Assembly (NCBI GenBank): GCA_004431415.1
Contig: QPMI01000437.1
Coordinates: forward strand, 124,001-188,000
DNA: 64,000 bases
Direction: 5' to 3'
Source: Cyanophora paradoxa CCMP329
Taxonomy: Eukaryota; Plantae; Glaucophyta
The notes beneath the pieces were generated by a model that was given only the letters and a program-made list of their open reading frames with translations, was not told where the DNA came from and made no database searches. The translations under genes were made by a program, and so were the position numbers. Numbering within the stretch: position 1 is the first letter of the stretch; each line of letters begins with the position of its first letter. Shown piece after piece: positions 1 to 54,793 of this stretch.

Positions 1-3000
1 AGTGCACGCCTGCAGCGCCTCGTCGGGCGTGCGGGGGTTCGCGGTGCGCATGCCCCACGCCGCCGCGTCCTCCATCGCTGTGATGCCCCACACCTGCCCC
101 CGCCGCCGAGGGCGCCTCAAGCTCGGCGCTCGATCAGCTTCTTATTATATAACTGATATAACGCACTTCCTCGTCGAAGGCGGCGATCAGCGTCCGCCCG
201 CGCAGCCCCGGGTCCACCTCGGGGCCCTGAATGCGTGGCGCGCACCGCGCCGCCCCGCGTTGGATTCGGCGTAGCGGTTTCGAAAAGATCCCTTGGCCTG
301 GGCCTGAGAAGAGGTTTTCGCACCACCTTCAACGCTCCGGCCGGGAGGGGCGTGGCGCGAAACAGGAACGCGAAGGTGGAGCCGCAGCCTGCGGGCCCAA
401 ATTAAAGCAGGGCACAGGCGCTCAGAGCGGCAGCAGATCTAGAGCTCGACGCGCAGCTGGCGCCAGGCGCACGCACCGGGGGTGGACACGAGCTGCATGT
501 CGCCGCCGAGGGCGCGAGCGATGCCGCGGGAGATGAAGAGCCCCAGGCCCGTCCCTGCCCGCGATCGGAGTAATTCAGAGCTCGACGCGCCTTGCATTAC
601 ATCAAGATCGATATATATCTAGATCTAGCTATAGAGCTCGAGCCGCGAAATGACGCAAAACAAAAGACGAGCCGCGAAATGCCGCGAAAAAAGCCGCGAA
701 ATGCTGATCATGAGCACCGCGAATTGTGGGTCTAGCGATAGCTATAGGGCCGCCGGGCCGCGCAATAATTCATATTTGAGACTTCACGATATCGATATAA
801 TTAGATCCAGAGAGGGGTGCATCCGGAGCCGCCTCGCTAGATTATAGCCCAGTAGTAGTTGCTAGCTATATATAGTTTGGATCCGGAGCCGCCTCGCTCG
901 ATTAATTATATTGCGAGCGCGCACCGGGGTGCCGCCGGCTCTTGGTGTTGTCGAGCTGCGTGAAGAACTCGAAGAGACGCCGCTGGTCCGCCTCCCCGAT
1001 CCCGCACCCCCCGTCTGCGCGCGCGCGCGTCAAACCTACGTGAAAGGCAGATCTAAATTTCTATTTCAAAAGTGGACGTCGCATTGATACACCACGGCAC
1101 ATGTGTCAATGTTCTACGTGACGTGCCCTTCCGACCGATCAACTAGATAGCTGAAGGTGCTAGCTAGGTGAAAGGCAGATCTAAGGGTGGCGGTGCCGGC
1201 CGCGGCGGCGGCGGCAGAAATTAAAAGGCAGATCTAGAGACGGCGGGGACCATCTCTGCCGCCGGCGGCAGGCAGGCGGGCCGGGCGCGCAGGTGACGTC
1301 GACGCGGTAGAACATCTAGATCTAGATCTACAGCCTAGATCTAGAAATTGAAGCTAAAGGCAGATCTAGATCTGAAGGCAGGCCGGCCGGGCGTGCCGGT
1401 GACGTCGACGCGGTAGAGGGCGGTGCCGTCGGGGCCGGGGCGCCCCTCCGCGTCCACCTCCACCGTGATGCGCCCCCCCTCCGAGAACTTGGCAGAGTCT
1501 GGCCGGCATGACCGTGCCGGAAGTTAAACATTAGCGTCAACGCGATAATGAGAGCTTTGAATCAGCGGCTGAATATTTATTCAAAGGGCGCACTGCCGAC
1601 GAGGTTGATGAGGACCTGGCGGATGCGGGCGGGGTCCGACACGATGCAGCGCTGCAGATTCCGCCGGATCTGCACACGCGGCGCGGGCCGAGGGGCGTCG
1701 ATCACGAATCAAGACTCAACGGCAAAGCGCGAGGCGCGAGATGGGAGGGGCCGAAGAGGGGGAGGGGAGGGGGGGGGAGGCGCAGGGGAGGCGCGGGGGG
1801 AGGGGGAGGGGAAGGGGGGGGGTAAAGGGGGGAAGCTTAAGGGGAAAGGGGGAAGGGGGGGGTGGGGGGGGGCGCACGACGAACTGCAGGGCGATGTTCT
1901 TCTGGCCCGTCACCTGCCCGCGGGCCTGCCAGTGAGACCCTAGGCCTGCCACGGCCGGCCAGATCTAGATGACGATCTAGATCTAAAGTTCCGCGCACGC
2001 CGCCCTGGCAGCGGGCCGGGCGCACCGGCTTCTAGATCTAGATCTTCTGGATCTAGCTATAGAGGGCGCACCGGCTTCTAGATCTAGATCTTCTGGATCT
2101 AGCTATAGAGGGCGCACCGGCTTCTAGATCTAGATCTTCTGGATCTAGCTATAGAGTTCTAGATCTAAATTTTGTATCTAGCTATAGCTATATAGATTTA
2201 GATTCGAATTCGAATGCACCGGCCAGATGACGTCCATGACGTCCTCGATGCAGGCGCGGAGGCACATCGGCTCGGGCGAGATCCGCAGCCGCCCGCCCCG
2301 CTCCAGCGCCGACGCGTCCAGCACCTCGCTCACCAGGTCCACCAGCCTGCGCCCCGGCCCCAGCGGTAAGAAGGAAACGAGGGAACTGTACATGTACGTA
2401 TACATGTGCCCTCGCGGGTGTGGCGGAGGCGCTAGGCGTGCTTCCGTTCAGGGACCTAGTCCCCTCGTTTCCTTCCTACCGCTCACCAGTTCTACCAGCC
2501 TGCGCCCCAGCGCTATAGCGCGCGGCCATCGTCGACAGAGTTTAGATATTCAATTTAGTTATATATACGCCGGATCGGATCGGGCCGGGGCGCGGACGCT
2601 TGGCCAGAGGATTGAGCGACTTGGAGGTACTCGCGCTGCTCGGCGGAGAGGCCGGCGTCGTCCAGGAGCAGCCCGACGATCCCGATGATCTGAGGGAGCC
2701 ATCGCAAAATTAGGTTTAAACGCAAGAATCGCATGCGCATGCGCAAGTATCCCAAAAATCGAAGGATTCCAGATAAGAAACAGAGGGTTTCGAAGGATCT
2801 GATACCGATGCACGCGCACGCGCGCGTATACGTATACCATCACAGATTTAATCACAGATCTAGACGTATGCCTCACCGCCTGCATGGGCGTGCGGAGCTC
2901 GTGGGTGACAACTGCGCCGGGCTTTGAATCTCTTCGAATTCGGAAATTCAATAATTCGGGCGGGCCGGGCGGACCGGAGAGGAAGTCGGACTTGGCGCGG

Positions 3001-6000
3001 GCGGCCGCCCGCGCCTGCTCCACGAGCTCCGCCTGCGCCAGCGCGATCCCCGCCGCCTGCGCCGCAGCGATTAGCGCAAACGTTAACCAGAGTTCAAATT
3101 CGAATCGATATCCACCCTTATCTGATTAATATTAATGATAAGATTCCGACGTCTACTGAATCATGATCACTGCAGCTGCGCATGCAGCTGCAGATCTAGA
3201 TCTAGATCTCGCGCCTGGCAGACTCTCGACCAAAATCAAACCCCGTCCACCGAATCATGATTGTGATATCGATCACTCTGGATCTCGATCTCGATATCGA
3301 TATCGATCTCGCGCCTGGCAGACGTCCTCGAAGAGGGCGACGTCCCCCGGCGTCACGGGGTGGTTGGGCTCCTTCCAGTGCGCCGTCACGATCCCGTTAA
3401 CCTGAGCGCGCCCCGAGTTAGCACCGCAAAAGAACAGTTGGGTCCGGATCCGGAGAGGTCATCAGAGTCTCATCACAGAATCAGCACCGCACGCGCAGCT
3501 GCGCAGGCATATGCAGTCTATATGTGTGCGCCTTAACAATAGAGTCTCATGATCATCAGATTTAGAGAAGCTTGAATCAGGTTCAAGCTTAACGGCGTCA
3601 AGAACAAATTATTAATTATCGATATCATTTCGAATTTAATTTCAGATTCGCGCGCGCGCGCCTTGCCGCCGGCCCACGTGGGGCTGTGGAGGGCCGTGCG
3701 CATCTTCATCTTGTCCAGGAAGGCGACCACCGGGGCGCTCGCCAGCCCGTCGGGGCCGGGCGTCTCGCCCGCCCACCACTGCGCCTGCCGCAGGTCCGCG
3801 CAGTACGTCGGCCCCGTCAGCCGCATCGCGCTCTGCTCACGTCGACGTCAGTGATGATAACGATGACGAGCCCCGATCGCAACAACTACATATAAATAGC
3901 GAGCTCGAGCGCATCCGGGAATTCATGGCCGAAATCGAACGAATCCGGATCGGACCTGCACGCGGTCGTGAATCGGATCCAGCGCCTCGTGTGCATGCGT
4001 AGCATTAGGCGACGACGTCGTTCCGATGCCTTCGCCCACGGACGCCGCGATCTCGGAGACGCGCATCGCGCTCTTGTCGCTGGAGTCGAGGTCCGGCTCG
4101 AGAATTATGATGAAGGAGCTGTCCGCCCCGAGGGCCTCTCTCAGGCGATGGGCCGTCGAGTCTACGATCCTACGGAAGTGGAAATGAGACCTTGAGACCG
4201 CGAAATTTGCTCGCCGCGAAATTTAACTCAATCCGCACTTTCGCGGGTCGAGCGTGTTCCGAATTTCGGCGGAGATGGACCTGCGTGACCCAACGAACGA
4301 GCGACCGTCAGAGAGCCTGAGCAATCAAGCAAAGGACCATCAATCAAATCAAACAGGAGCCTGAGCAGTTTTGCGCGCGCGAGCTGCAACAGCAACAGCG
4401 TTGGCGGGGCACGTCGGCTCGAGAAACGATTTAAATTAAATGTGACCCACCTCTTCCTCCAGCCGCCGGTTCTTGTCCTCGAGGTCCGTGAGCAGCGAGT
4501 CGAGCCCGATCTGTGTATACGTATATTAAATTATCGAAATCGAAATCCAGATCTAGGTAACGCGAAACGCGTCTCGAATTCGAACCGAGTGGCCGAGGAG
4601 GTCGCAGACGGCGGAGAAGAGGCCCCTCTCGTGCGGGGACGGGTCCAGCGCGCGGCTCCACCCCATCGCCACGAGGCCCGTCACCTGCGATATCGACATA
4701 TATCGATGCGAAAACCGCGTCGATGCGTAAAAAGCACGCCTAGCGCCTCCGGATCCGCCACACCCGCGACGGATCTAAATCCCTCGTTTAATTTCATTCC
4801 TATAGCAAGCGCGCATGCGCACCTGGCCGTTCCACTCCGTCGCCTTCATGATGCACGCATTGAATCCCAGGGCCGCGACCTCCTTCTGCAACTGCTTGAA
4901 GGCCTCCTGCAGCAGCCTTGATCATGAGCGAAACTCGATCCTGGCCAAAGCGGCTGGCGGAGCTATATTATAATTACAGCCCACGCACGTCGTTCTCGTC
5001 GCGCGCCGGGCCGCCCGCGTCGACGTCCTCAACGAAGCGCATCCAGTCCCTCTCGAAGCGCACGACCCCGGGCCGGGCGAGCTGTGTCTGTCGGGAGCGT
5101 CGTACGCGTCGTTGGCACCGGCAGAGATTGCGCTGTACATGTGCTATATTACAAGGGGATCGTAAATATCATTCGCACTGCGATCCGGTGCTTCGCCGCG
5201 GGTGACCACGGCGGGGCGACTGTCTCGCGCACGTCGGACCAGTCTCGCATGCAACAAACCTGCTCCCGGAAAGGGAGGAAACATTCTCACAAAATAAATT
5301 AAATGGAGACGTGATCAGAAATTTAAAAGCGCACCTGCAGCTCAGCCTTCGTAGCGATGGCGTCGGCCGGGTTGCAGCGCCCCTGCCCGCACCTGAGGGC
5401 GGACACCATAACGCTGTCCGAGTCGAAGAGCTGCATGATGGGCCTCAGATTGGCTCTCGCCACGTCGCAAAATCGCAGTTCTCTGATCACGAAGAATAGC
5501 CTCAGACACCACGAAGAAGACGTTTCAGGGCTAAGGTATATAAGCGATCTACGCACGTCCGTATGGAGCGGGAGATGTCGCGAAGGACGGCCTCGCTCTT
5601 TAGCTGGCGCTCGAGCATCGCGGTGTGGCGCGCGTACTGCGTACGCGAAGGATCCAAATCCCAGTCGGCAGAAGAACAATGAAAGAACAAACGAAGCACC
5701 TCCTCTTCGAGCTCCTTGTTCTTGGCTTCGAGGTGTTTCATCAGGTTCTCCTGTCCTATCTGCAATTCAGGCTCTTAGGCTCTCAAATGCATGTACAGCC
5801 GCAGGGACGCATGCGCACCGCGTGTCCGATCTGATCATGATAGATGTCATGAGAGAGAGCGCGCGTCGACGTTGTTTCAGAGCACGCGCAAGGGACAGGA
5901 TCTAGAGCTAGAGCCATACAATTCAGGACGCAATGACAGATCTTAACTTTAAGTGTAGACAGAGCTTATAATTCTAGATCTGGACGCAATGCATATGGCA

Positions 6001-9000
6001 GATCTCAAATTTAATTTAGATCTGTACAGAGATGTTATTCTGGACGAAACGCGCGGGCGCGCGCGCCTGGTCGCAGACGGTCTCGAAGAAGGGCGACCTC
6101 GTGTGGGTCAATCTAGCTCTAGATCCTAATCTTAATCTTGGACCTAGTCAGAGCTCGGTTTCTAATTCTGGACGCGATGACAGATACCGATATCGAATTT
6201 ATATCTAGGCGTGTAAATAGTACTAGACGTGTAACTAATTCTGGACGCAATTACAGCGCGCCTGGTCGCAGACGGCCTCGAAGAGGGCGATCTCGTGGGG
6301 GTCGCGGTCGCGGAAGACTTCCCAACCCACCGCCAGGAACCCCGTCACCTGCGGCCGCGTCAAATCAATTTGCAAGCTGCGTTAAGCCCCGCAAAAGCGC
6401 TACGGCTGCTAAAATTGGATGCAAAAATGCATCTAGATAGATGTAAGCTAGGGCTGCTCAAATTCGATGTCACCTGCGGCCGCGTCAAGCCCCGCAAAAG
6501 CGACCTAATTTCACAAAGTTGCTCGAAGCTTAAGCCAGGCATGTTTGTTCAAGCTTTAGCGAATTACGGTTGCTCGAAACCAGACATGCCGCGTTCGCGA
6601 TCGCGGCGCCGGCGTCGATATATATATTCAAGGGAAGGCTGCTCGAAGCCAGAGATGTTGTTCAAGTTGTTTAATGCAGCGAACCTGATTGTTCCATTCC
6701 GTCGGCATGAATAGACCGCTCGCGAAACCCATCCCCCGAATCGTGTCTTGGTGCTCCCGGAAATCGTCCTGGAAATTCGAAAATTCGAATGGAAATTCGA
6801 CGCGATTCGAGAGGATTAGAAGTCAGGCTCGCTATCGCAATGCTCGGTGAAGTTACTCACGCTATCCTCCGGGAAGTCGAGATCGAGATCCGGGATCCAG
6901 CGGGTCCAGTCGCGCTCGGCGCGAACCTTTCCTCGGGTGGCAAACATTCTCTGCGCCCTCGTCATCGCGAGTCCAAACAGAAATTAAACCTCACGCGCGC
7001 GCGGCCGGACGTCGACGCGCCGCGAAACGCTTTCGAGCCGCGCGCGGATACGGAGGACACCAGGTCGTCCGGACTTCCTCCCAGCCCCGCTTCAACAGGA
7101 TCTGCTTAACGTGAATAAAGCATAACGTTAAAAGAACAGCGGGGCTGCCTGGTATGCATTTAATTTGCGTTGAAGCGAACCTGAAGTTCGTCCTCCGTGC
7201 CGATCTTGTCCGCGGCGCTTCGATCGCCCCCGGCGCGGAACGCGCTCACCAGGATGCTCTCGGAGTCGAACAGGGCCCGGATCGGCCCCGCGGATTCCCG
7301 TAGAATGCCCTGCAGGTCCAGCCGCGTCCGAATCGAGCGCGCCACGGAGCGGAGCAGCGCTTCGCTCTGCAGCTGCCGCTCGAGGAGCGCTCTCTGAAAT
7401 TTAAGCGGCGGTCACTTAACGCTGAAGACTAAATAAAGATCGGATGCCCACAAACCTGAGCCTCCAGCTCGCTGTTCTTGGCCCGTAGGTCTTTTAGCAA
7501 GTTCTCTTGTCCGATCTGCACATTCATAAGATTAATAACAATTATATAGAAATAAGAGAAACCATTCGGGGGAATTTAATTTGTCCATCCGTACCGCATG
7601 GCCGATCTGATGCAATCAATTACAACCAATAGGAAGGGAAATGCGTCGATAAATTCGAATCCGTACCTGATCGCAAATGCTCTCAAAAAGAGCGATTTCG
7701 TGTTGCGAGATTTCGTGATCGCCTCCCCAGGCTACCATCATGCAGCCCGTCACCTGTACATGTGCGAGGCGCGGTTTACACTGAATTCGAAAGACTTCGA
7801 CGTCGTGCATCAAATATATATATATTGAAGCCACGGACCATGCCGCCCCATTCCGTGGCGCGCGTCAAGCCGGACCTTATTCCGAGCTCGCCGTGGACCA
7901 CCGCCATCTCCTCCGACGCCGCCTGCGGCTGCGCATAAGAATGCGGCGTCCGAAAATTTCCAAGTAAAGTTCTTCTGAAAAATTTGCTTTTCCAAATAGA
8001 ACATGAACAATTCCAGTTCTATCATTTCTAAATTCAAGTTTTCCAGCTTTAAAATCGGGCGCGGGAGTGCGCGGACGGGATCGTCGACGTCGGCAGGACC
8101 GCCTGCGTCGAAGTCCGGAATGAACTGAGCCCAGTTCTGCCTGCAGTGCGTCCTTATAGGCTGATCGAACAAATGCTGCACATGCGAATCGATAAAACAA
8201 AGGCCGTCACAATCAGAAGGCTTTGCCATGCGTATGCATCAACGTTTATAATTACCTGCATACGATAGAGAATGGCGGGGAAGTGATGCGGAGGGGCGTC
8301 CTCAACTGTGTCTTTCCCGCGAAGTGCCACGCACTGCGCTCGCATACGCGAGCTTCGATAAATCGCGCATGCACAGGCTCGAACAATTAAATTTCGACGG
8401 AATTTGTTTGGCGCGCACTCTGATCTCCGACGGCGAGCCCAAGGTGGACGTCGGGTCGCCATCCCGCGTAAGCTCCGAGAAGTAGTTGATGCCAACCTGG
8501 TATGGGAAGCTTCAGACCTAGCATCTGTGTGGGCCGACCGATCGCGAGTCTTCCGCGGACCATGTCGGAGTCGAAGAGCTCCCGGATCCGGGGGGCGGTC
8601 TCCTTGAGCGTCTCCCTCACGCCGCGCTTGCTGTAATATAATGTGCGGCAGAAAGAACGCGTGCGCGCGTGAAAAGTAATTATATAATGCATATGATCAT
8701 GACATGGCGCACTCTCGCATGGCCCGCGCAATGTCTCGAAAGAGGACCTCCCGCTGTGCATTAATATTGCAGTTCGGAGTGCCGGCGAGCTCGAGCGAAT
8801 TCTGCAATTCGAGGGGCGGTCACAATCACGAATGCACAATTGATTGTAATTAATTTTAATGAGATCTAGAGCGATGCATACACATGTGGCTGCAACCTAG
8901 GCCTGCGCACCGCTAGCGCTTGCGGAACTGAGTGGCTCCCCTTGTCCGTATTCAACATCGATATCAAGCCGACGTCGATGTTTCCCGTCTGCGCCCCACA

Positions 9001-9916
9001 CGCATCCTCCAAAGCCAGCTTCACGCCCACTGTAGCACAGGGCGGCCGGGCTCAGTGATAGCGATTGAATTACGGCTTCACGCTCCATAGCGACTCCTGG
9101 AATATTAATGCCTAGTCCCGAAGGATCAAAACCAGCGTACCACACTCGACGAAAATTTTCAAGGACCGAGTCATCTCCTCGGAGATATACTGACCCGCGT
9201 CGACGTTCTTCCAGTGCACGGCGAGTAGCGCCCACGTCTGCAGCCACGCCCCCAAACGCCGCGATCAGCTCAGTATTAATTGATCAATCAAATCGGAGCG
9301 GCGCGCGCCACGTCGAACGCGCGACAGGGGAGCCACGCGCATGACCCGGCCTGCGTCTCGTGAAGAATTTCCTCCGCGCGCTCCGGCGAGACACCGCGGG
9401 CCACCAGTGCTGCAGGCACGTCGCGAATGACGCGAATCTCGATCCCGTCCCTGTTAATCTCCTCGAACTCCGCCCCGGGCGCGAGCTGGCGCAGCTCCGG
9501 CGGGTATACGTAGCCCGCCAGCTGCAGGTCGGCCCTACAAGAAGCATAAGCGATAGCAGAAACGAAGCCAAGCAGCCAGCAAGAGAAGCGGACGGCGATT
9601 CGAGAGGTAGGAGAAAAGTTCGGTCTGCGCGCGCGAAATCGATCCCTAGGCCTGGCGATTTCGCGACATCGAGCTCGCGTGCTTTAAATCTGCGCAGGTT
9701 CCGAAAATTGCGCGTCAGAGTAAAGAAAGAGAGAAATGAGAAACCAGAATGAGAAGCGCGGCGTCCCGCGCAGGCGCACCCGCGCGAAGATCCGTCTGCA
9801 GCGCCCACGCTATCGCTCTCGCTCGAATCGAATAAACGAAGTCCCAGCGCTGCAGCGGACGCTCGCAGGGACGCCCGGCGCTCCGCGCCGAGGTCTCGCG
9901 ATTTTGATTGCTGCAT
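1..9916 (-). CDS. Multi-exon hybrid sensor histidine kinase: 4 GAF-like repeats + HisKA + HATPase_c + receiver-like region (3' end beyond window)
   Basis: Hand-spliced minus-strand exons give H-box [19 protein letters not shown] (~2880-3000), N-box [15 protein letters not shown] (~1595-1650), G1/[16 protein letters not shown] (~925-1015), G2 [18 protein letters not shown] (~480-555), GSTFAF (~365-385) and a receiver-like [23 protein letters not shown] at the left edge. Upstream exons repeat GAF-like units ending HEIALFE(S/A)(I/V)CDQ. Start codon uncertain. Confidence 0.9.
2018..2156. repeat. Intronic tandem repeat, 3 x 46 bp
   Basis: Unit gggcgcaccggcttctagatctagatcttctggatctagctataga starts at 2018, 2064 and 2110. 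Confidence 0.95.
2362..2483. mobile_element. Foldback/MITE-like insertion in a kinase intron
   Basis: 26-bp inverted repeats (2362-2387 and 2458-2483, 24/26 match) enclose ccctcgcgggtgtggcggaggcgc..taggcgt..ccgttc..gggacc, which recurs at 61481-61629. Confidence 0.6.
8897..9283 (-). other. Foreign-looking ORF fragment inside a kinase intron (possible endogenous RNA-virus sequence)
   Basis: Uninterrupted reading frame of about 128 codons with many A/T-ending codons, unlike the flanking GC3-rich exons. Contains INT...(about 30 aa)...[10 protein letters not shown]. Confidence 0.35.
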
Positions 9917-11105: not shown

Positions 11106-11742
11106 CTAGCTGGAGCCCGCCAGGATGCCGATGAGCAGGGGCCCTATCAAGAAGTCGGCGTTCACCCACTGGTGGTACTTATCTGCGCGCGAGGTTAACC
11201 GGCCGGTCTCTAGCCGCGCGTAAACGGCAAAGGGCGCACTGAAGAGCCCTGTGCCGTCGCGGCCCGCGGCCTTCATCAGGATGTCCTTGCCTGCGCGTGC
11301 GCGTGCGTGAGCTCAAGAGGCGGAAGGGCGCTGTGGGCCGCGCGGGGCCATACGGACCGCCTGGATGGAAGTCCATGTACGGCGTGATGTTGTACACTTT
11401 GCCGCGGAACACCATCCACGCGTCGTCCTCCTTGTTGTGCAGGCGCACCTCCTCCATCGCAATCTTGCGCAGCACGCCGCCGTGCCCGGCGATGTTCGGT
11501 GTCGTTTGCATCGTTCTGACCCAGTCCATCTGAGAGCGGCCCGGCGGAAGGGGGATCTTCCCGCGCTTCGGGCCCGGCTGGTTCTGTGCTGTGTTGAAGA
11601 GAATCTGCGGCGCGCGCGGCGCCTCTGCGGGCTTGCTGCTGCTTCCGTCGACTCCTGTAACAAGCAGCGGCGCCGCCGGCGCTGGCGGAGGGGGCGGAGG
11701 CATCGCGGGCGGCGGCGCTGGCGCCCCGGCCTCGTCGCTCAT
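11106..11742 (-). CDS. Cytochrome b5-like heme-binding domain protein (RLF/Irc21/CYB5R4 N-terminal type), 3 exons
   Basis: [41 protein letters not shown] | [16 protein letters not shown] | KYHQWVN..LIGIL..stop. Both heme-ligand His motifs (HPGG and YH) are present. Confidence 0.92.
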
Positions 11743-12010: not shown

Positions 12011-15000
12011 ATGCCTCAAGCGCGCGAGAGAGATCGTGCGGAGGTTGCCCGCCTGCGTACGCAACCTCGCCCATCTGCAGCAGGCGCGCAACGCGTCGGC
12101 GGACACTCGAGCTTCGTGGTACGCCATTCGCATAGCCGCATCGTACAAGACCCCCGAAGTGACGACGCCGTCCGATTGACGACGGCGTCCGATCACACAC
12201 AGGCCCAGCTGCAGGACTTGTTGGCCCAGGAGACTCGGCTGCAAGAGCTCGATGCCGCCGAGGAGCATTTGCGAAAGCTTCGCATGTAAGCGTTGCGGGC
12301 GCCGTCGGATCGCCTGGTCCGACCCGAATCTCCAGGAACGTGATGCGAAGGACGGAGCAAATGCTCCAGTCTGTCCCCGAACCTTTTAGGAGGGAGCTCG
12401 GCATCGACGGCGCGCTGGAATCGGCGGAGGTGCGCGGCCCGTCCGTCCACATGGGCGCGCCCGGTGAACACCTCCGCAGACTGCCATCCTGGCCTCCTCC
12501 CAGCGCGCCCGTGAAGCAAGGCTGGCTGCATACGAATCAGAAGGCGCGCTTTCGTCGGATCCCTCCTTTCGCCCCGTTCGAAACGCGTGGCTGCAGAGCG
12601 GCGAGGCGACGAGCGGCTCGCGAGGCGCCCCAAGCTGCTCGAGCGGGTCGACGGGCGCGCCGGCCAGGGCGGCGCTCGCTACTCGGCTCCGCAGGCGGCC
12701 GCGCTGGCGGCGGCGTCGGGGTCGTCGTCGCTGCCCGCCACCCGCGCTTCCGCTCCGGCGGTGAACGCCGCCCGCCCCGCGCGGGAGCCGCGAGCTGACG
12801 CCAGAGGCGGCAGGCCTGGCGGCCCGCGCCGCCGTTTACGGAGCCGAACGTCCCGCTGCGCCGCGACCCGCGGGACGTGCCGCCGCCGCAGCCGGACTCG
12901 GACGTGGTGCGGCCGACCCGGCCCGGCCCGGCCCCGCGCCCCGCGCCTCGGCCGACGCGCGCGCAGGAGTACGAGGGGACGTGGAGCCCCGAAGAGGGCG
13001 GCCAGTGCGACGGCGGCGAAGAGAGCTCAGGCGACTCCGAGCGCAGCGGCCGCATGCTCGCCATCAAGCGCGCCCGGCAGGGTCCGTCGTCCGCTCTCAT
13101 CCGGACCCGCGCCGCCGTCGCGTCTTACGGCCTCGCAGGCTCGCACCGCGCTCGCGGATCGTCCGACTCCGGGGCTGGAGAAGGCGCGAGCGACGGGGGC
13201 GCCTCGCCGTACACAGCGAGCCGCTCGCCCGAGCCCGAGCCCGAGCCCGAGCTGGGCGTGCGGGAGCGCCTGGCGGAGCTGGAGGGTCTCATCCAGGAGG
13301 GAAAGCAGCACCTGGCGTGGCTGCAGAGCCAGGCCAGCGAGCTGCTGCGGGCCCCGCCGGCGGCGGCCGCCGCCGCCGGCGCCGCCACCGGCAGCCTGTT
13401 CACGGATGAGGCCTCCGCCAACGGCCGTTCCGAGTTCAGCGGCGCCGAGGGCGATGGGCAGAGCGATGGGCACGGCCGCGCCGCCGAGCCGCGCACGGAG
13501 GACGAGGAGGAGGAGGAGGAGGAGGAGAGGGGCGACGGGGCGCTCGCGGGCGGGTCGATGCGGCAGGCAGGGGGCGCCTCCACCGGTCGCCTTTTCTACG
13601 CCGACATCGATCGCCAGCTGGACGAGCTCCGCTCCGTGCAGGTCCCTTTCCTTCTTTCTTTTCCTTTTCCGTCCTTTTCTGAGAGGGAGAGTGGGGGTAG
13701 GACCGCCTCGATCGCCTCCGGGACCACGTCTCGCACCAGACGGAGGTCGGCCGGGAGATGCTGGGCCGGTGCGCCGACGCTGCCCACCGCCGTCGCTTTC
13801 GTGTACGCCGCGCTAAGCCGCCGGCAGGCTGGAGCAGCAGACGGCGACGCTGCAGGAGGAGGCGGCGGCGCGGGCGGCGGCGCGGGCCCGTGGGGAGCTG
13901 GAGGGCAACACCGACTCGGCGGCAGGCGAGGAGGAGGAGGAGCAGCTGGGCGGCGCCCTCGTGGACGACGCCGGCGAGGGCGAGGAGGAGGAGATCGACC
14001 TGCTCGGGCCCGAGAGCCGCGGCTGGCAGCGCGTCCCCACTGCCGACGAGGACGAGGACGAGGGGGAAGAGGACGTGGAGCAAGTGGTCGCCCGAGGAGC
14101 CGCGGCCGCGGCCTCGGCCTCGGCGGCGGCGCGCCGGCAGCCCGGGCAGCAGCAGCAGCGGCAGCAGCAGCAGCAGGCACGGCCCGCCGCGTACGGCGAG
14201 TTCCTCGAGTCTGTGCGGCGCGGCCTCCTCATGAGTGAGCCCCAGATGCAGAACTAACTAAGCTTCCCAAGCTTAGCTCAGCTTAGCTTAACCTTAGCTT
14301 AACCTTAACCCGCTTAGCTTTACGTAGCTTAGCGTATCTTAACTTAACCCGCGCCCCGCGCCGCGCCGCAGCGGGCGACGACCCCAACGCGATCTTCGAC
14401 GGGGCGGAGGAGGGCGGGGCGCCCCCGGCCGAGGAGGAGGACGAGGAGGAGGAGGAGGAGGGGCCTGTCCAAGCCGACGACGAGGAGGAGGAGGGTGAGG
14501 ATGAGGTGCGGGCCCTCGCTTGGCGCCCCGTACCCCCGCCTGGCTTGATCCCGTACCCCCGCAGTACGGGTACCGCGGCCGGCGGCGTCCGCGGACCGAC
14601 GGCGGTGCGCGCGGCCCGCTTCGGCGCGGCTCTTTGCGCCCTTCTGAGCCGCCCGCGCCCGCCCGCCCGCGCAGCGTCCGTCTCGTCTTTCGCTTCGGGC
14701 CATGCGACGGCCGGCTCGGCGCTCACCCGCCGCTCGGCGCCGGCGCCGCGCCCCGTCTCCCGCGCATCGGAGGGGCGCCGGTGCGGCCGGCCCTCCTCCT
14801 CGCCCAACCCTAGAGAATGTGCGAATGACCGGGGATGCAGGATCTCGCCGCGCGGGAGCCCTCCCACGGACGTCCCGCTGCCGCCGGCGCTCGCGCGGGC
14901 CGCGGCGCGCGCGGCGGCGGCGCGGGGCCACGCTGGCCCCCCGAACGACCGTTCCGCGAGCGCCCTGTCCCAACGCTCCACCTACACGGAGGACCTGCAG

Positions 15001-18000
15001 GTGCCTTATTCTTCTTCTTCTTCTTCTTCTTCCTTATCGCTTCTTCTTTTCATCCCTTCTTTCTTAGGCCGAGCTCGAGGCGAGCGAGGCTGACCTGCAC
15101 GACCTCCGCATGGCCACCCGCTTCGCCCGCTCCCTCGCCGCCCCCACGTGCGCTCCGCTTTCGCCCGTCTTCTCTTTTCTTGACGGTGTACCCCGCAGGG
15201 ACCGCACCGCGTTCTTCCGCGACTTCTTCCGCTTCTTTCGGGTACCCCCTCTTCTTCCCTTCCCGTCCCGCGCCCGCCCCGTTCCTTAGCGGGCGGCGAG
15301 CAGGAGCCGGGGCGCCGGTTCCAGCGGCCGCTCGAGACGCAGAGGGACCTGGGCCTGGGGGGGTACGGCGCCGCCGTGATGGACGACGACGACGAGGACG
15401 ACGAGGAGGGCGTCGGCGGGCCGCCCGGGCCGCCGCCCCCGCCCGCCCAGGAGGCCACCCGCCCGGGCAGCGCCGGAGTGCGCCCGGGCAGCGCCGTGGG
15501 GGCGCGCCCGGCCTCCGCTGGAGGCCGCGGAGCGGGCCGCCCCGCCTCGGCGGGCGGCCGCCCCGGCTCCTCGGGGGCCCCTGCGCCCGGCCCGGCGGGC
15601 GTCGGCGGTCTCGACGAGGAGGATGAGGAGGAGGAGGAGGACTACCCCCCGGCGTACAGCGCCGTGCGGCACCCGGAGGCTCAGATCCCCATCACCGACT
15701 GGTACGACGGAGGCCTCCCCGCCACGGACTGGTGCCTTGCTTTCAGTTTCAGAAACGAATCACTATCTCTACGCCTTGCTGAACTCTAAGATACAGGTAC
15801 CTCGCCGAGGAGGACAGCGGCCAGCGGCCCGGGGGACGTCCCAAGACGGCGCCGGGCGGCCGCCGGCCGCGCGCCCAGGTCCACGAGGAGGAAGAGGAAG
15901 AAGAGGAGGAGGAGGAGGAGGAAGAGGAGCAGGAGGAGCAGGAGGCGGCGGCGGCGCCGCAGGGGCGGGGTAGCGGGCTCCTCGCCCCGCCGCAGGCCCG
16001 CCCCCGCGGACGCGAGTCGCCGCTAACGGCCTACTCCCTCTTCAACGACCTTTCTAGCGTCGGGTACGCCTTTCTTTGAGCCTTCGTTCGCTGCTTTCCT
16101 TCCTTTCTCTGAGCCTTCGTCCGCCGGCAGCTCGGGCCCCCGCGCGTGGAGCCGCCGCGCCGTAGTTAACGGCGAGGGCCGCCGGGGCGAGGAGGAGGAC
16201 GAGGACGAGGACGAGGAGGAGGACGACGAGGAGGAGGAGGACGAGGGCGGGGCGGACGATGAGGGGGAAGAGCACGGAGACCAGCGGCGCAGGCAGCAGC
16301 AGCAGCAGCAGCAGCGCGGGGGGCAGGAGGATGAGCAGCAGCAGCGCGGGGCGGGGGCGAGCCGGGCGCGCCCATGGCCCCGGGCCGGCCTGACCGTCTC
16401 CATCAACGACGACGAGGAGGAAGCGGACGGGAGGGGCGCCGAGGACGACGAGGAGGAGGAGGAGGAGGAGGAGGAAGATGCGCACGGCGAGGCCCGCAGC
16501 GGCGTCGGCAGCTCGGTCGACGAGGCGCGCGGCTCCTGTACCCCCTCCTCCTTCTCCCCCCCCCTAACTTTTCCTCTTCAGGCGGCGCTGGCGCGGCTGC
16601 TGGGGGAGCTGCGGAGGGCGCAGGAGGGCCTGGCGGAGGCGAGGGCCCAGAAGGAGGGCCTCATGCGCGAGCTCGAGGAGACCGTCGCCAGCAGGTGCGC
16701 GCGCCCCCAGAAGCCCTTGATGACGATCCGAATCGGATCTCTCTCTCTCTCTCTCTCTCTCTGAAACTCACATGTGTCCCTTGCGCCTGCGCCCACGCTT
16801 GCCCCGCGCAGCGCGGTGGGCCCGGAGCAGCTGGCGGCGGCCTTCCAGGACCTGCAGCGCCTCCCCGACGGCGAGCTCCGCGCCGAGTGCCTCCGCCGCA
16901 TCGAAGAGTGCGCCCCGGCCGCGCCCCCCCGCCCTCTAGAAGCTTAGAAGCAGAAGCAGAGCGTTGGCTGTAAGCAGTCAAAGCTTCGAAGCTTCTAGCG
17001 CGCCGCGTTCCTTGCGCCTCGAAGCGCGAAGCTGACGCTCCTTGGCCCCGCAGCGCCATCATCAACTTCGACACGAAGAAGCCGACCGCCGCCGCCTCCG
17101 CCTCCCCCGCGCAGCAGCCGTCCACGCGCTCCCCTCGCCTCCCGTGCGTTCCCCTCGTTCGCCGCCCTTCTGTCCAGATCTTAGGGGCGGCGCGCAGGAG
17201 CGAGAGCTCGCCCCGGCGGCCCTCGCCCCGCGGCCCGAGCTCCAGCTCGGCCCTGCGCCCCTCCCCCCGGTCCGCCGGGCCCCGCCCCTGCCGCCCTCCA
17301 TCCGCCCTTGGCCGGAGTCTGATCCCTGGCGCAGGGGAGCGGCCCCGCAGCAGTCTCCAAAGCAGCAGCAGGTCCAGGCCTCGCCGCGGCAGACGCCGCG
17401 TACCCCGGCGGGCGGGTCCTGCAAGGTCCCGCCCTCGCCCCGCATCCCGGCGCCCTCGCCGCGGGCAGCGGCCGCCGCCGCGGCGCTGGCCGGCGTGGCC
17501 AACTCGTCGGGATCGATTCGCACGAGCGAAAACTACTTCATAAGGAACGCCCTCGAGTCGCCGAACAAGGTGCCCCCGTCCTTCCCGAAATCGGTACCCC
17601 GAGGCGTCTCCTTAGCTGCTTCTTCTGCCGCAGGAGCGCGAGTGGGCGGCGTCGGCGGCCGCGCAGTGGGGCCGCCGGCCGGCGCAGGAGCCAGCGGGCG
17701 AGGATACCCCCAGCGAGGACGTCTCGAGCGCCCGGTACCCCCCCCCCCCCCCCGCGGCTCCTCGGCGCACCCCTCTGAAGCGGCGGCGCTCAGGAGCGCC
17801 CTAACTGAGAGCGAGGGCGGGGGCTACCGCGACGAGGAGGGCAGCATCGAGGGGTATGCTTCACCCGACGCTCGGCTCGCCGCTCGGCTCAGCACTCAGC
17901 TGAGCGCAGAGGCGACTCGGCGGTCCGGGGGGAGTCCTCGGCGGGCCCGACCGACCGCTCCTCCACCACGAGCCGCTCCTCCTCGCGCCGCAGGAGGCGC

Positions 18001-21000
18001 GCGCCCCGCGCCCGCCCGCCCCCCGCCGGGCCCTTCACGCACACGGTCCGCCCCCCTTCCTTTTCTTTTCTTTTCCCTCTAACTTTTCTTCTTCTTCTTC
18101 TCAGAGGCGGGCGGAGCTGCAGCGCGAGTACGCGGCGGAGATCGACGCGAACGAGGCGCCCCTTCCTCTCTCTTTCTTTTCTATACTTTTCTCCTCTGAC
18201 ACTGCTTCTTCGCAGGCGCTCCTGACGGACCTCTCCCGCATGCTGGACTCGATCCTCGACGCCTTCCGCCGCTTCGTCCGCCACCGAAGTCCGTCCCCTT
18301 TCTGAGCTCACGTTTATAAGCTATTTATCTACCTATCATAGTATCTAGCTATCTAAGCTGCTTTGCTAAGCTGTCTACCTATCTATCTGGCTCTTTATAA
18401 CTATCTCTCTATCTTTGTGGCCCCTCCCTCCTCTCTGTCTGACGCCGCGAGCACCGCAGGCGACGCGGGCGGGCGCCTGGGCGAGCCGGCCCTCGCCCCG
18501 CAGACGACCCGGACCCTGGCGGCCCGCGCTGTCGAGCTCCTGCGCCGCCGCCGCCCGCCCCGCGGTGCGCCCCCTCCTTTTTAGAGCCATAGCCATTAGA
18601 AGCCTTAGAAGCCTTCCTCCTCCTCTCTCCTCGCTCAGCTCAGCTTCATTCAAAGCCTTAGAAGCGTTCCTCTTCCTCGCTCTTCTCCACTCTCCTTCTT
18701 CGCCTCCCCTCTCACCTCCCCCTTCCCTTCCTCTCAGGCCGGGCCCCCGTGGACGCCGCCCTCGCGGCCGCCGTGCGCGACGCCGTCCTGGGCTTCGAGG
18801 GGCGGCCCGTCGCGGAGGCCAAGGCCCCGCTCCTCGCCGCCGTGAGCGACATCCTCTACGACGACATGGTCTTCAACCGAGTGCGTTCGCCTCTCATAAG
18901 ATTTGATTAGATCAGACTAGATGCTTCTTTCTAGTTTAGAGGCCTAGACGTGCGTTCCGTGGGCTTCTTGCATCTTAATGTGGGAGTGTTATCAGACCTC
19001 GGGAAGCTAGCTTTCTCTCTAAGGCGTATTCCTAGACTGTAAGTCTAGACGTCTATGAAACCTTCTTTCTAGAAGCCTCTGCGACGATTGAGTCTCCAAC
19101 CGCGTGCGCTTCTGGTGTCCTGAGGGCCCCGGCAGGTGCTGGGGCGCGGCGGCTCGGTTTCGGGCGCCGCCTCGGCCTCAGAGGCTGCCTCCTCCTCGGA
19201 CGCCGGCGGCCGCCGCGAAGGGGCCGGAGCAGCGGACGCGGCCAGCGCCTCCTCGTCGCTCCTGCCTGAGGACGAGCTTCTCCTGGTACCCCCCTGCTCT
19301 TGTACTCGTGCCCCCCACTTCCTAACGCTCGGATTGTCGCGCAGGCGGACGCGGCGCTCGTGGCGGGGGCGGCGGGGGCCCGCGGGGCCGCGCACTCGCC
19401 GGCGCTGGAGGCGTGGGGCGCCCGGGCGCGCCAGGTACACAACACGCTTCCTCCTCTTCTACCCGCTCGCCTCACCTCCCACAGTACGCGGCGGGCGGGG
19501 CGGCGCCGAGCGAGGAGGATGCGAGCGAGGAGGGCGGGGGCGAGCTGGAGGCGGCGCGGGCGCTGGGGGACGTGCTGGCGCGCGAGGCGGGGGAGACCAC
19601 CAGCGAGCGCGAGGAGGAGATGGTGCGCCCCCGAGCCTTGGGAGGGTCTTAAACCTTCGATCTTAGATCTTAGGTTCTCGGACCGAGGCTTAGACCCAAG
19701 GCTTAGGACCGAAGATCTTGCCTTCGGGTCTAGAGAACTTTAGATCTCATTAGATCTGGCGCGCCCCTACGCCGTACGACCTTAGATCTCATATCGCTCG
19801 TTCTTAGAGTTCTCGGCTCTGCTTCGTACGCTGAGCTCGGGCCGCGCCCTCGCTCAGATGCGGGGCGCGCCGCGGCCGCCGTCGGGCCCCCCCGCGGGGA
19901 CCCGCGGCCGGCGGGACCGCGAGGCCGACGCCGCCGCCCCCCTCGCCTGCCGCCGGGGCCCCCGGGGCGACGAGGAGGACGAGGACGAGGACGGGTACGA
20001 CTTCGGGAAAGACGAGGAGGAGGAGGAGGAGGAGGAGGAGGAGGGGGAGGACGAGTTCCCCGAGATCGAGGGCGCAGTGGTGTCGGGCGCGAGCTCCGCC
20101 GCGCGCCTCCGCACCGCCGCCGGCGAGGTGCCCGCGCCCCGAAGGCCTCCTAAGCACAGAGGAAGGCTGCCTAGATTCTTCTTCTTAGGCTCATCTAGGC
20201 TTAGGCTTGGCTCAGGCGTGCCCGCGCTTTGATAGGAGATAGGGAAAGGCCGCTAAATCCTCCCCTCCTGTCTTGTACCCGTCCTCGGGCCCTTAACCCC
20301 TACCCCCCCCCCCCCCCAGGCGGCGGAGGAGTTCCAGCGGGGCTTCGAGGAGCGCCACAGGGACCTCCAGGCCCGCCTCCGCGCCCTCAAGGTACCCCCC
20401 TCCTCACCCCCTACCCCCCCTCTCCTTGCGCCTCCGGCTTCGCCCCTGACCCCTCCTTCCCCTTCCTTCGTGCGCAGGACGCGTACTTCTCGGACCTCGT
20501 GCAGGGCCCCCGCAACGGCGGCGCCCCCTCCGCCTCCGCCTCCGCGGGCCGCGGGCGGCAGCCGCCGCCGGCGCCGGCGGCGCTCGGAGAGGAAGAGGAG
20601 GATCTGGCGGAGCCGCTGAGGATCGAAGACCTGCCCCGGGGCCCCCTTGCCGGCCTCGCCCGCGTGCGCGCTTTCTTTTCTATCTCTTCAAAGCCTTCCT
20701 CCTCCACAAGCTTTCTATCTTTCCTAAGCTTAAGCTTTTCGTTAGCTCTCTTAAGTTATCTCTTATCTTATATAAGATGAGGGTTTCAAGCCTCGCCCGC
20801 GTGCGACGCGCCCCCTCTAAGCCTTCGCAACCAACAGAACTAGAGCCTTTAATGTTACCTTCTAGGCGGCTCCTATATTAGCTTTAGCGGGCGTTCTCTC
20901 AAGCGCCCTATACCCCAAATCTGATCTCTTTTCCGCCGCAGGACGCCGGTCCCGTCCAGATCGGGGCCCTGACCCTCCGCGGGCCCCTCCCCAGCGCCGT

Positions 21001-21841
21001 CCGCGAGGTGCGGTGATGTACCCCCCTTGCTTCGTCCCCCCCCCCCTTGCGTTCTCCTGAACTGAACGGGCTCGCAGGGGGCCCCCGAGGAGGGCGCCGC
21101 CCTTCGGGAGGCGTTCCTTGCCTCCCTCCCCACCGGCTCCCTCGGCGGGGGTACGTACGCCTTACCCGGCAATCCTGTACCCCCCCAATCCGAACGAACG
21201 CTCGCCGGGCAGGCCTCGCGGGAGACCCGTTCGAGGGTTTGGACCCGTCCTCCCACTTCGGGGGATCCGACGGGCCCGGGCCCGGCGCCCCCAGCCGCCT
21301 GCAGCGCGACGTCCAGAACACGGGTTCGAGTCCCGCCCGGCCGGCTTTACTTGGCTTGTGAGCCTGACCTCGTACCCGGACGGCAGTTCGGGCCCTGCTG
21401 GCGTCCGGCGTGGCGAGCGCGGCTCCAAGCCGCCGCCTGAACGCAGAGGGCGAGTCCGAGAGCAGCGAGGAGGCGCGTACCCCGCCCCCGCCCCCGCCCG
21501 CGTACCCCGCTCCGCCCCGCCCCGCCTCGTCTCGCTTATCGCGGTCGCAGGAGGCGGCGTCTCCGCCCAAGGCGCAGGCACGCCCGCAGGCGGCAGCCTC
21601 GTCCTCGCCCGCGGCGGCCAAGCCGGAGGCCACGACGCCGCAGAAGGCGCAGGCGCAAGCGCCGGCCCGCCCGCAGGCAGCGGCGGCGCCGGCGGCGGCC
21701 CCGGCCTCGCCGGCGGCGGCCAGGAAGGAGGAGGGGGGGGACCGGGTGCCCGCCTGGGTAGAGGCCGCTCGGTTCCGCCTCGCGCGCGCCCTGTCCCGCG
21801 CCATCGCTCCCGAGCTCGCCCGCCGGGCACAGCGGGCCTGA
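12011..21841 (+). CDS. Large multi-exon acidic/low-complexity coiled-coil protein with PCM1 C-terminal-like blocks
   Basis: GC3-rich exons separated by short introns, poly-Glu/Asp tracts, and blocks AFQDLQRLPDGELRAECLRRIE (~16840-16907) and VRDAVLGFEGRPVAEAKAPLLAAVSDILYDDMVFNR (~18773-18880) resembling PCM1_C as I recall it. Both gene ends uncertain. Confidence 0.6.
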
Positions 21842-21991: not shown

Positions 21992-23797
21992 ATGGCGACC
22001 TCGTTCGTTGGCATCGGCCTCCCCGCAGCCCCTCGGCAGCGCCTGGCGTCTTCCCATGACTGCCTAGTGGCTCAGAGGCCATCGGCGGCGCGCCCGATCC
22101 GCCAGCAGGCCCAGGCCCCGTTCGAGGTCGTGTCGCGTGCCTCGAGCTCCGGCGAGCCGTCGGCGTCCCGCGAGTTCGTCGTGACCCGCCGCGAGGCTTT
22201 CTTCGCCGCACTGTCAGCGTCCCTGGCCGCGGCTTCCCCCTCCGCCGGTGCGCGCGCGCCGCACGCGGCACCGGCTTAGCTGCGCACCGCCGGGCGGGCG
22301 CCCCCGGGAGCATCTCTGATGACCGAATCGCACAGCGCTTGCTGCGATCTCCAAGTCTGACACCGCTTTCACCGTGACCGACAAGATCCCCGTGCGTGGA
22401 CCTTCCCGTGCCCAGCGCATCCGGGGCTCACGCAGGCGCGCATTCAGGGCCCGCCGGCGATCCAGTACACGTTCTCGTGCGCCGGCCTCCCGCCGCTCCG
22501 CCGAGATTGGAAGAGAGAGCTGGCGGCTGACCGGCCCCCGCGCATGCGCAGCTTCCCGCTCACATGGAAGAAGAAGATCGTGCAGCCGGCGCGCTCGAGC
22601 GGCACGTACTGCTTTTGGGACGTTCCCACGAAGGACGTCGCCGCTCTCGCCGTCGACGCGGTGAAGGTGCGCACTTCGAATTCGATCCGATCGATCCGCG
22701 CGATTTGATCGTGCGCGTTCGCGCGCGCGCCCGCCCGCGCGCAGCCGGCGAGCGTGGCGGAGGCGGGCAAGCCCGAGGACTTCATCAAATCGATCGCGAA
22801 GACTCTGCTGGACCCTCCCATCGAGGAGAGCGACGAGGACCCCGACGTCCTCGTGCGTCCAATAAGCATTTCGTCTAGCTGAAGCGTCAATCTGTGTCAA
22901 TTTAGCTAACGTTTCTAGCTTCTTCTAGCTTCGACCTAGCTTCGGAATCTCCTTTCGATCTAACTAAGCTTCTATGTCAGTTTAGCTAACGTTTCTACCT
23001 TCTTTTTCTGGCTTCGCACCCCGGGCTCCCCCCTCCCCGCCCTCCGCCGGCCGTCCGGTCCCCCACCCCGCCCCCTCCCCCCTCACCACTCTCTGCCCTC
23101 GCACTCGCCCGAGCCGCACTCCCCCCCCTCGCCCCCCCCCCCCCCCCCCCCCGCCAAGCCGCCGGCCGGCCGCCCACCCACCCCCACCCCCCTGGTGCTC
23201 CCCCCCCTGTGCTCCCCCCCCCTGGTGCTCCCCTCCCTCCCCCGTCATACTCCCCCGCCTTCCCGCACCCTCCCGACCTGCCCTCCACCCGGGCCCCGCT
23301 GAGCTTCTTCTTCCGCCTCCCCCCCCTCCCCCCCCCTTCGCTCCGCCCCGATTTCCACCCCCCCCCTCCCCTCCCCCGGCCCCGCTGAGCTCCTTTATCT
23401 CCCTCTCCGGCCAGATCTTCTCGGCGAAGGTGGTGGAGGAGGGGGGTAGGCAGTACATCGTCTCCGAGCTCCAGTTCGACACGACGGGGTACGCCGATTC
23501 AAGAATGATTGGAGAGATAAGATGGAACGCTTATCCGGTACCCAGGTACACCGACACGGGCCGCCGCTACCAGCGCCAGCGCAAGGCCACGACGAAGCTC
23601 ACCATCGTCGGGGGCAAGCTCTACGGTCCGCTTTTCCACTTCCCCCCCCCCCCCCCCCCCCACCCGCTGCAGCGCTGATGTGCATCGCGTACCCCCACGC
23701 CGCAGCGCTGACGTGCTCGGCGCTGGTGAAGCGGTACCCGGAGGCTACCCCGCAGTTCCGCACCATCCTCGACTCGTACGCCGTCACCGACGCGTGA
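21992..23797 (+). CDS. PsbP-domain (PPD/PPL-like) thylakoid lumen protein
   Basis: Transit peptide MATSFVG.., twin-Arg TRREAFF followed by an Ala-rich signal. Mature part FPLTWKK..SVAEAGKPEDF..IFSAKVVEEGGRQY..KLTIVGGKLYALTCSA..FRTILDSY matches the PsbP pattern. Confidence 0.85.
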
Positions 23798-52300: not shown

Positions 52301-52595
52301 GCGTCGGCACCCAGCCAAATGGACTTGTTAGGGTCACGCTCACGGTAGCTGCTGCTCCGGGACATTCGGGTCTATCTTCCGCTTCTCAAAGCTAAATTTC
52401 TGCGGCCGGTCGGTCTCAGCGAACGGTGCCCAGGTGCCACGCACATGCGAAGATGTTCCGCACCTCTTCATCCTTGCCGCCGGCGTCCTTGGAAGCCCGC
52501 CGGGCGGCCTCGCCGTAAGCGAGGTCGCTGTAGCCCGAGGGCGTGTAGCCCTTCCCGGACTTCGCCTGTGAGCCTTTCCTCACAGGCGTCGCCAT
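43377..52595 (-). CDS. AK9: Adenylate kinase 9-like multi-domain protein with a long N-terminal extension
   Basis: P-loops GPPACGKT, GPPLAGKT, GPKGAGKT, GPPKSGRT; (L/V)LDGFP motifs; YHS-like CPV..Y units; C-terminal FLEATVVQPICRGL..KPKYPGLS..SALKFLALYLKAHNP typical of AK9. N-terminal exons encode DWERDAKGEDTLDYDKFFDSIFELADLW (EF-hand-like) and appear to splice into the kinase part near 49600. Confidence 0.85.
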
Positions 52596-53100: not shown

Positions 53101-54793
53101 CTAACCGCTCTTCGCGCGAAGAATCTGCGCAGATGCGCGAATAAGTGATCGGCAGAACGCGCTGCCGGGCTGCAGTCGGTGAGCACCTCGTCTTTCGTGG
53201 GCCCTTGGTAGCCACTCTTCCGCAACCACTTGCGCCAGGTCATAAGCTGCGGGTAGATCATGCGGGACGCAACGATGTCCCGCTGGACTGGGAACTCCTG
53301 CGAGAAGGGGACGGGTCGGTGGCGGGCGAAGGGAGAGAGGCGCCCTTTCGGACCTCAAAGAAGCGGAATATGTCTGCCTTCTCCGAGGCCCCCGGGATGC
53401 CAGAGGTCCGCAGCGATTCGTAAGTGATCTCCTCGTACCGGGCCGCCTTGCCAGTCACTGAGAGCCACGCGCTCAAGATCGTGGAAGAAGCAAGGAGGAA
53501 AACCAACCAAAAAAAACAAACGAACCATTCATGAACACGCGAACGAGCTGGGGGCCGCTGAGGAAGTCGCCGGCAACACCGATGGCTTTTCCTACGTTGC
53601 GGTCGGCCGCCAGGGTTACGCGACTTCGCGCGACGCTAACGCAGCTCGGAACCACGAACCAACGTATTCGTCGGGCCGCTCGAAGACCTTGGCAACGATA
53701 CCGCCGAGGTCGTCCACAGAGAACATGTAAAAAGGACGCTGCCCCATCTGCAGTCTGCGGTCAGCGGGGCCGAGGGGCGGTTCCGCTTCGAGCGCGCGGC
53801 GCACCGGGAGAGAGATGACGTACACGCCGTCCGCCGTGATGCGCCAGTGCCAGGGGTCGAGCACGTTCTCGTAGTAGAAGCTAGGGTTGATGATCGTGAC
53901 CGAGAGCCCTTGCGTGATGGCGTAGCGCTCTACTATCGCTCTTGCCTCCGGGTTCGCGTTGCTGGCCTGGCTCACGGATCCCTCTGTTGCGTCGTCCAAG
54001 GTGCTGCGGAACTGTCAGCGGAGGTCCTGGAAAGAGCGCTCGCAACCGCAGAGCGAGCGAACCTATAGACGAAGTGCTTGACACCTAACGATTTGGCCAC
54101 AGCGACGAGCCGCTTGCCCTGCTCGATGCCCTGCTCCCAGGACACACCATCGCCGTAGAGCTGCGCACTGAAGACACCGTAGGCGTCGCGCATCGCGACG
54201 GAGAGCGACTCCTGGTTCTCCAGATCTCCGAACACCACCTCCGCACCGCAGTCCCGCAAGAAGTGCGCCTTGGGCGAGTTCGGGTTCCGAGACATGGCAC
54301 GTACCTGCACTCGGCTTCAGCGGATGCGGGAAAAGGCGCGGGCGCCGAGATACCCTGAAGGTTCCGCGGGCAAGCAGATGCTGGCACACAGAGCCGCCCT
54401 GCCGGCCGGTGGCCCCAGCAACAAGGACGAGCGGGAGCTTCCTCGCGAGCTGGTCCGGCGGCTCGCTGTTCGTCGCCGAATCACCTGGTCGCACATAGTT
54501 CAGAAAGAAGCACGAAAGCAGGAAACGAGCAACGCACCCGTCTGGGCGCTGGCGCTCCCGGTATCGAAGTCGGGTCGGCCGGGCATGCAGCTGAGCAGGC
54601 AGCGCAAGGAGTTGTCGACCGGCGACATCTGCTGCGCCGCGCGGTCGACTTCCTGCGGGCTCATCCCTATGATGCCGCCCATGGTGCTGTTCAGATCTAC
54701 GCCTCGCTGCTGCTGTGCTGGTGGTTGCGGAGGCGGCTGCCCGCCGCCGCCTAGCAGGGCCGCGAGCGGCAGGCACTCGTCTCCGCGAGCCAT
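53101..54793 (-). CDS. NmrA/HSCARG-like atypical SDR protein
   Basis: VLVAGATGRQGGSV..VRAMSRNPNSPKA..GAEVVFGDL..AYGVFS..EQGKRLVAVAKSLGVKHFVYSS..PSFYYEN..VDDLG; ends ILRAKSG-stop. The start may instead be the ATG at 54682. Confidence 0.9.

Follow-up and report, generated by a model that had tools for sequence, protein, structure and literature searches.

A probable divergent orthologue of the centriolar satellite scaffold PCM1 in the glaucophyte alga Cyanophora paradoxa

Is PCM1, the scaffold protein of centriolar satellites, a recent invention of the opisthokonts, or has poor sequence conservation hidden it in other eukaryotes? The question is raised by a gene in the alga Cyanophora paradoxa CCMP329 (Glaucophyta), located on the forward strand of a 64-kb stretch of contig QPMI01000437.1 (positions 124,001 to 188,000; hereafter the window, to which all nucleotide coordinates refer) that is eukaryotic, GC-rich and dense in introns. 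Our account of the PCM1 literature draws on PMC12094185, PMC12203921, PMC11839937, PMC9484695, PMC4046923 and bioRxiv 10.1101/2025.07.27.666075. There, PCM1 is placed among proteins whose first appearance is in opisthokonts (Kuhn 2014, PMC4046923), its range is given as animals plus Monosiga (a 2024 review), it is reported mainly from vertebrates among 11 species (Wu 2025), Paramecium is said to lack it, and its range is widened to ciliated fungi (Pachinger 2025), the review history of the last paper recording no clear orthologue outside opisthokonts and leaving recent origin versus poor conservation open. Our literature searches found no report of a non-opisthokont PCM1, subscription journals and automatic database annotations lying outside their coverage. 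We present evidence that the algal protein is very probably a divergent PCM1 orthologue outside the opisthokonts, and likely a new, very divergent member of the family beyond its known range.

An earlier note on this DNA had placed a PCM1 homologue at 16600-18885, on the basis of four helical blocks set in acidic low-complexity sequence. Its location was correct and its extent too short, as the gene model reaches far past both ends, from 12011 to 21841 on the + strand, with 40 exons, 39 introns (35 GT-AG and 4 GC-AG) and an open frame from ATG to stop that encodes 2,066 aa with a pI of 4.71. All four block peptides are encoded by + strand exons where the note had put them (16582-18880): block 1 by exons 16582-16694, 16812-16907 and a third from 17054 onward, block 2 by exons 18105-18155 and 18216-18288, block 3 by exon 18460-18564 and block 4 by exon 18738-18880. 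The sequence that surrounds them is indeed acidic and of low complexity, with D+E making up 18.9% of the model. The gene is transcribed and spliced: among the matches listed, contig joints support at least 14 of the 39 modelled introns (3 + 11), and every one of the six introns that interrupt or flank the four blocks is among these. The joint-bearing contigs derive from runs X1, X2, X3 and X7 (two studies), taken as RNA on the strength of the spliced joints and not of run records; the DNA-like run X12 covers these introns and contains none of the spliced joints. The start codon, the 17 introns 5' of 16500, which were picked by consensus ends, open frame and contig piece ends, and 8 later introns are predicted only.

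Comparison with real PCM1 sequences was made possible by a degenerate probe that retrieved 57 metagenome loci, all with PCM1 block-4 context. The transcripts checked from these loci (4/4) all match the Pfam family PCM1_C (PF15717), positive controls scoring 127-336 bits against a cut-off of 27.4 bits, and alignment of the retrieved sequences led to 1,387 proteins, with all named ones among the 120 listed being animals. From 15 of the 120 listed proteins, 3 transcripts and 38 exon fragments we defined eight animal-conserved segments, S1 to S8. For five of the eight, the single best site in the 2,066 aa of the algal protein falls in PCM1 order: S1 at aa 1143, S2 at about 1347-1348, S6 at 1500, S7 at 1835 and S8 at 1896, with S2, S7 and S8 absent from what the earlier note had claimed. 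Per-segment P values are 2e-6 to 2e-5 for S6, 0.001-0.06 for S1 and 0.008-0.08 for S2, S7 and S8, and ordered sum statistics over the five segments, scaled to a proteome of 10 million residues, give E values of 5e-4 to 3e-6. A colinear chain score for all eight segments, computed on the 3' 1,074 aa, exceeded every decoy at three pseudocount settings (z 5.0-12.7); the decoys comprised 900 shuffled sequences, 446 bacterial pseudo-proteins (223 of them real and 223 reversed), 11 PCM1 tails in reverse, 9 PCM1 N-terminal halves and the reversed model. When animal PCM1s were compared with the spliced model by blastp, block 4 was the top high-scoring segment pair for 9/9 queries and block 1 came second in seven of the eight that contain it. 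Taken alone, this animal comparison is strong but not conclusive.

The strongest match to PCM1_C is S6 (block 4; aa 1500-1550, 18738-19141, + strand), a helix followed by an F-E-G-R turn and a second helix. HMMER returns E 2.5e-5 for one protein, hhalign P 8e-4 with a probability of 25%, and the algal segment is hydrophobic at 16 of 23 conserved hydrophobic columns as against 2 of 32 others (Fisher P 9e-7); by sequence comparison block 4 is significant on its own, at P ~2e-5. One animal row combines the F-E-G-R turn with an S-D-x-L-Y-D pattern, as algal block 4 does. S1 (block 1; aa 1143-1199, 16639-17072, + strand) is a rank-1 site that matches the three-helix start of PCM1_C without gaps, with blastp E values of 0.02-0.27 and hydrophobic residues at 12/23 conserved hydrophobic columns versus 4/34 others (Fisher P 0.0012). 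The apparent retention in the alga of S1, an element present in all accepted PCM1 orthologues examined, is weak evidence on its own. Both S1 and S6 align to animal PCM1 without gaps, and HMMER and hhalign place them in the same registers with modest scores. The remaining ordered sites are short rank-1 motifs on the + strand: S2, with a T-P-S-E core (17700-17720, P 0.02-0.08); S7, I-E-D-L-P after an acidic run (20616-20636, P 0.008-0.03); and S8, L-A-G-D-P (21215-21229, P 0.025-0.034), whose five letters are identical in one animal transcript (L020). S7 has proline at the aromatic position of the vertebrate LC3-interacting region (LIR; aromatic-x-x-aliphatic before D-L-P), an aromatic that is also missing in three cnidarian PCM1s (P0004, P0005 and P0010).

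A separate line of evidence comes from a block shared with a choanoflagellate. S0 (aa ~728-761; 15092-15241, + strand, with intron 15148-15198 predicted only) is amphipathic and ends D-R-x-x-F-F-x-x-F-F-x-x-F-R, and in a by-eye alignment it is identical at 15 of 33 columns to the Monosiga brevicollis PCM1 row in Kuhn 2014 Dataset S1 (81824.JGI33155), the pair having a hand-computed BLOSUM62 score of ~62, some 28 bits, and a pairwise E of ~0.007. This Monosiga protein (MONBRDRAFT_33155) is classed as PCM1 both in that dataset and in Pachinger 2025 Table S1. S0 lies upstream of S1 in both proteins, and S0, S1, S2, S6, S7 and S8 occur in PCM1 order within the algal one. The S0 motif is found in 0/120 listed animal PCM1s, never arises in 5,000 shuffles and does not occur among the 2.5 million residues obtained from loci in six frames, zero counts that measure rarity only, as the pattern was derived from the algal-Monosiga pair itself; nor was it seen in the chytrid rows, the start of each lying outside the part examined. 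Monosiga also shares with the alga the D-L-P tail motif and poly-acidic linkers, and differs from it in the spacing of S0 and S1 (~100 aa in Monosiga, 400 aa in the alga) and in S6, which is barely recognisable in Monosiga and kept in the alga. Between them, the tests against real PCM1 sequences and the block shared with Monosiga bear out the proposal of a PCM1-type protein in this alga.

The architecture of the protein, described beforehand as acidic, disordered and rich in coiled coils, agrees with this assignment. Human PCM1 has 2,024 aa and a pI of 4.99, and the animal proteins carrying PF15717 (lancelet P0007, coral P0004, porpoise P0012) resemble the algal one in their length of ~2,000 aa, pI of 4.6-5.0, N-terminal coiled coils and single order of S1, S2, S6, S7 and S8. 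Our own heptad heuristic predicts three coiled coils before aa 740 in the algal protein, all on the + strand: aa 291-318 (13270-13353), aa 396-437 (13585-13830) and aa 708-735 (14965-15115), the last running into S0. It is at the second that the animal CC2 block scores highest (22.5, P<0.001 versus two nulls; 19.2 for the reversed model). The differences are considerable: identity is only ~25-30% in the best blocks, S3 is missing, S4 and S5 are unrecognisable by sequence, the LIR aromatic is absent, S0 is present, and ~170 more residues follow S8. Past the point where animal PCM1 ends, the C-terminus forms a basic amphipathic segment (21743-21838, + strand) with no Pfam match. By eye, the divergence is comparable to that of orthologues that are already accepted, namely the chytrid PCM1s (Batrachochytrium and Spizellomyces rows) and Drosophila Combover, which can be recognised mainly by S1 (plus S6 in Batrachochytrium) and which, unlike the alga, are all opisthokonts.

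What would such a protein do in an alga? An AlphaFold model of animal PCM1_C (22 sequences, mean pLDDT 61) shows S1 as three helices (pLDDT ~64-75) and S4-S6 as a four-helix unit, mostly at pLDDT 85-97, with disorder between the two; the S4 helix spans model residues 277-297 and the S5 helix 305-321. In a by-eye mapping, Gly and Pro residues of the alga coincide with loops in the animal model, and the lengths of helices 1 and 2 are matched by blocks 2 and 3. The model suggests a unit of three helices for algal S1 and a four-helix domain for S4-S6. In human cells, PCM1 region 700-1200 is what makes granules form, their size and solubility being tuned by the C-terminal region, and the very divergent fly orthologue forms foci tied to the translation of centrosomal and ciliary proteins. 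By analogy, the algal product may be a self-assembling scaffold that collects proteins of the basal bodies and flagella in cytoplasmic granules: the coiled coils in its N-terminal and middle parts would form multimers and drive the granules to form, as human PCM1 deletion work suggests, the disordered, acidic linkers would leave the assembly in a dynamic state, and its C-terminal units would tune granule size, with S0, S1 and S4-S6 binding clients. ATG8 binding through the vertebrate LIR would not be expected. We slightly favour this satellite or granule-scaffold role for the algal protein, and the combined reading, a vertically inherited, divergent PCM1 orthologue that acts as a granule scaffold in a flagellated alga, appears to us probable.

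The alternative that survives best accepts the homology and assigns the protein a different job, as a fixed structural component of basal bodies or rootlets without satellite-like granules. It remains a real rival because the middle region of the algal protein has no detectable similarity to human aa 700-1200, the granule-driving part, and it is favoured too by an algal hydrophobic content far below that of animal PCM1 (15% versus 22-27%) and by the published record, in which Paramecium is reported without PCM1 and without granules, and PCM1 granules are unproven outside vertebrates and flies. Against a fixed role stand the acidic, disordered, coiled-coil layout and the size, both retained in the alga, and the fly orthologue, which still makes foci despite its divergence; we regard this alternative as unlikely.

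More radically, the resemblance could be due to chance, an unrelated acidic low-complexity protein having a few amphipathic helices that mimic PCM1 blocks, and a number of results weigh on that side and against orthology. The comparison with Pfam PCM1_C that the earlier note had proposed found nothing for single exons or genomic frames: none of 37 queries from the gene (12+11+9+5, three of them misframed) matches PF15717 at E<=10, these and the database queries being pieces of 22-200 aa or frames broken by intron sequence, and not the whole spliced protein. A home-made hidden Markov model of the whole region gave a negative score, swamped by low complexity, and hhalign probabilities do not exceed 28%. 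With the block-4 exon as query, a word-indexed search found no relative among 7,384 candidates and the ESM Atlas yielded no usable match; of the 30 Atlas matches to the animal domain, the three listed are all PCM1_C clusters. An HMMER search of the same exon against 1.84 billion representatives returned two matches, both repeat-inflated and unrelated to PCM1. Sequence searches of the PDB found no PCM1 chain, and Foldseek of the animal PCM1_C model against the PDB gave nothing at E<=0.001, generic helical bundles only.

Further points on the same side concern the segments themselves. The earlier note had read all four blocks as PCM1_C matches; blocks 1 and 4 carry signal, whereas blocks 2 and 3 are at chance. 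S4 (block 2; 18135-18288, + strand) and S5 (block 3; 18495-18550, + strand) fit helices 1 and 2 of the four-helix domain in place and length, but by sequence they rank 21-39 and 297-327 among sites in the model, and an anchored gapped alignment that sets both in the register proposed in that note is equalled in score by 126 of 300 shuffles. S3, which lies between S2 and S4 in animal PCM1, has no site in the algal model; nor can it be made out in the rows for Monosiga, the chytrids or mosquito, and it therefore does not define the PCM1 family as a whole. Of 15 N-terminal animal blocks, 14 gave nothing convincing, CC2 being the only strong one, and no intron position is common to the algal gene and the animal loci. 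S2, S7 and S8 were spotted by eye before the segment limits were fixed, the decoys were bacterial, shuffled or PCM1-derived and not a eukaryotic proteome, and by our own arithmetic, correction for the choice of five segments out of eight and for 25,000 families brings the animal-only E to ~0.14-0.001. The identity was, moreover, first picked from among many families. Chance nevertheless seems highly improbable to us, given five rank-1 sites in order, an independent block in Monosiga, and a chain score that beat all decoys, reversed PCM1 and PCM1 coiled-coil halves included.

That the gene is a contaminant, or was gained horizontally from an opisthokont and is thus uninformative on deep origin, agrees with the lack of any other non-opisthokont PCM1 in our database searches or the literature, but is a very remote prospect in view of its 39 short host-style introns (GC-AG included), its extreme divergence, the DNA contigs that join it to the genes next to it, the spliced contigs that bear that same organism label, and a mosaic, S0 being shared with the choanoflagellate while animals and a chytrid row have S6, that is easier to reconcile with shared ancestry than with transfer from a single lineage.

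The genes around the PCM1-like gene bear on the nature of the host. A large gene at 43380-52570 (- strand) encodes several adenylate-kinase domains and a C-terminus that matches chains of axonemal AK9 / CFAP276 (E 8e-13, 8e-14; AK8 E 4e-25), and the host is likely flagellated because the window encodes this axonemal AK9-like protein. Downstream of the PCM1-like gene, and starting 151 bp after its stop, a gene at 21992-23797 (+ strand) has a twin-arginine signal and a transit-peptide-like N-terminus in which Phe stands close to the start; Phe near the N-terminal start is typical of glaucophyte plastid import peptides. The C-terminus of its product recalls PsbP-like lumen proteins, which Pfam, PDB and Atlas searches did not confirm. 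A type II NADH dehydrogenase-like gene at 54917-57291 (+ strand; Pyr_redox_2 pieces), which we take to resemble plastid NDC1, has one exon sharing 50% identity with a Cyanobium protein, with a match in one of four bacterial genomes and none in the other three. Judged by its gene content, the host is likely a flagellated, photosynthetic non-opisthokont. On the other side of the PCM1-like gene lies a spliced cytochrome b5-domain gene (11182-11742, - strand; E 4e-12, with contig joints), head to head with it, the two predicted start codons lying ~270 bp apart. The window also holds a many-exon histidine kinase-like gene at 442-9533 (- strand; HATPase_c E 0.002), with apparent repeated sensor domains upstream, and an NmrA-like gene at 53664-54286 (- strand; E 9e-7).

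The earlier note had drawn from this locus an ancient origin of centriolar satellites. The evidence supports that claim for the PCM1 protein and does not extend to satellites as organelles. We give even chances to a broader scenario, in which the ancestor that animals share with plants had PCM1, already as a scaffold of satellite-like granules for the flagellar apparatus, the ancestral S0 was kept by choanoflagellates and glaucophytes and lost by animals, and the published absences from algae and protists reflect divergence. If the glaucophyte orthologue is real, the question of recent origin would be settled in favour of poor conservation and, under established phylogeny, the PCM1 protein would be as old as the last eukaryotic common ancestor, or nearly so. 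S0, S1, S6 and the tail would be among the few PCM1 elements kept over such a distance and are likely its functional core, and S0 and S6 could then serve as probes for PCM1 across eukaryotes. The alga itself is a culturable unicellular flagellate in which it may be asked whether satellites exist without a centrosome.

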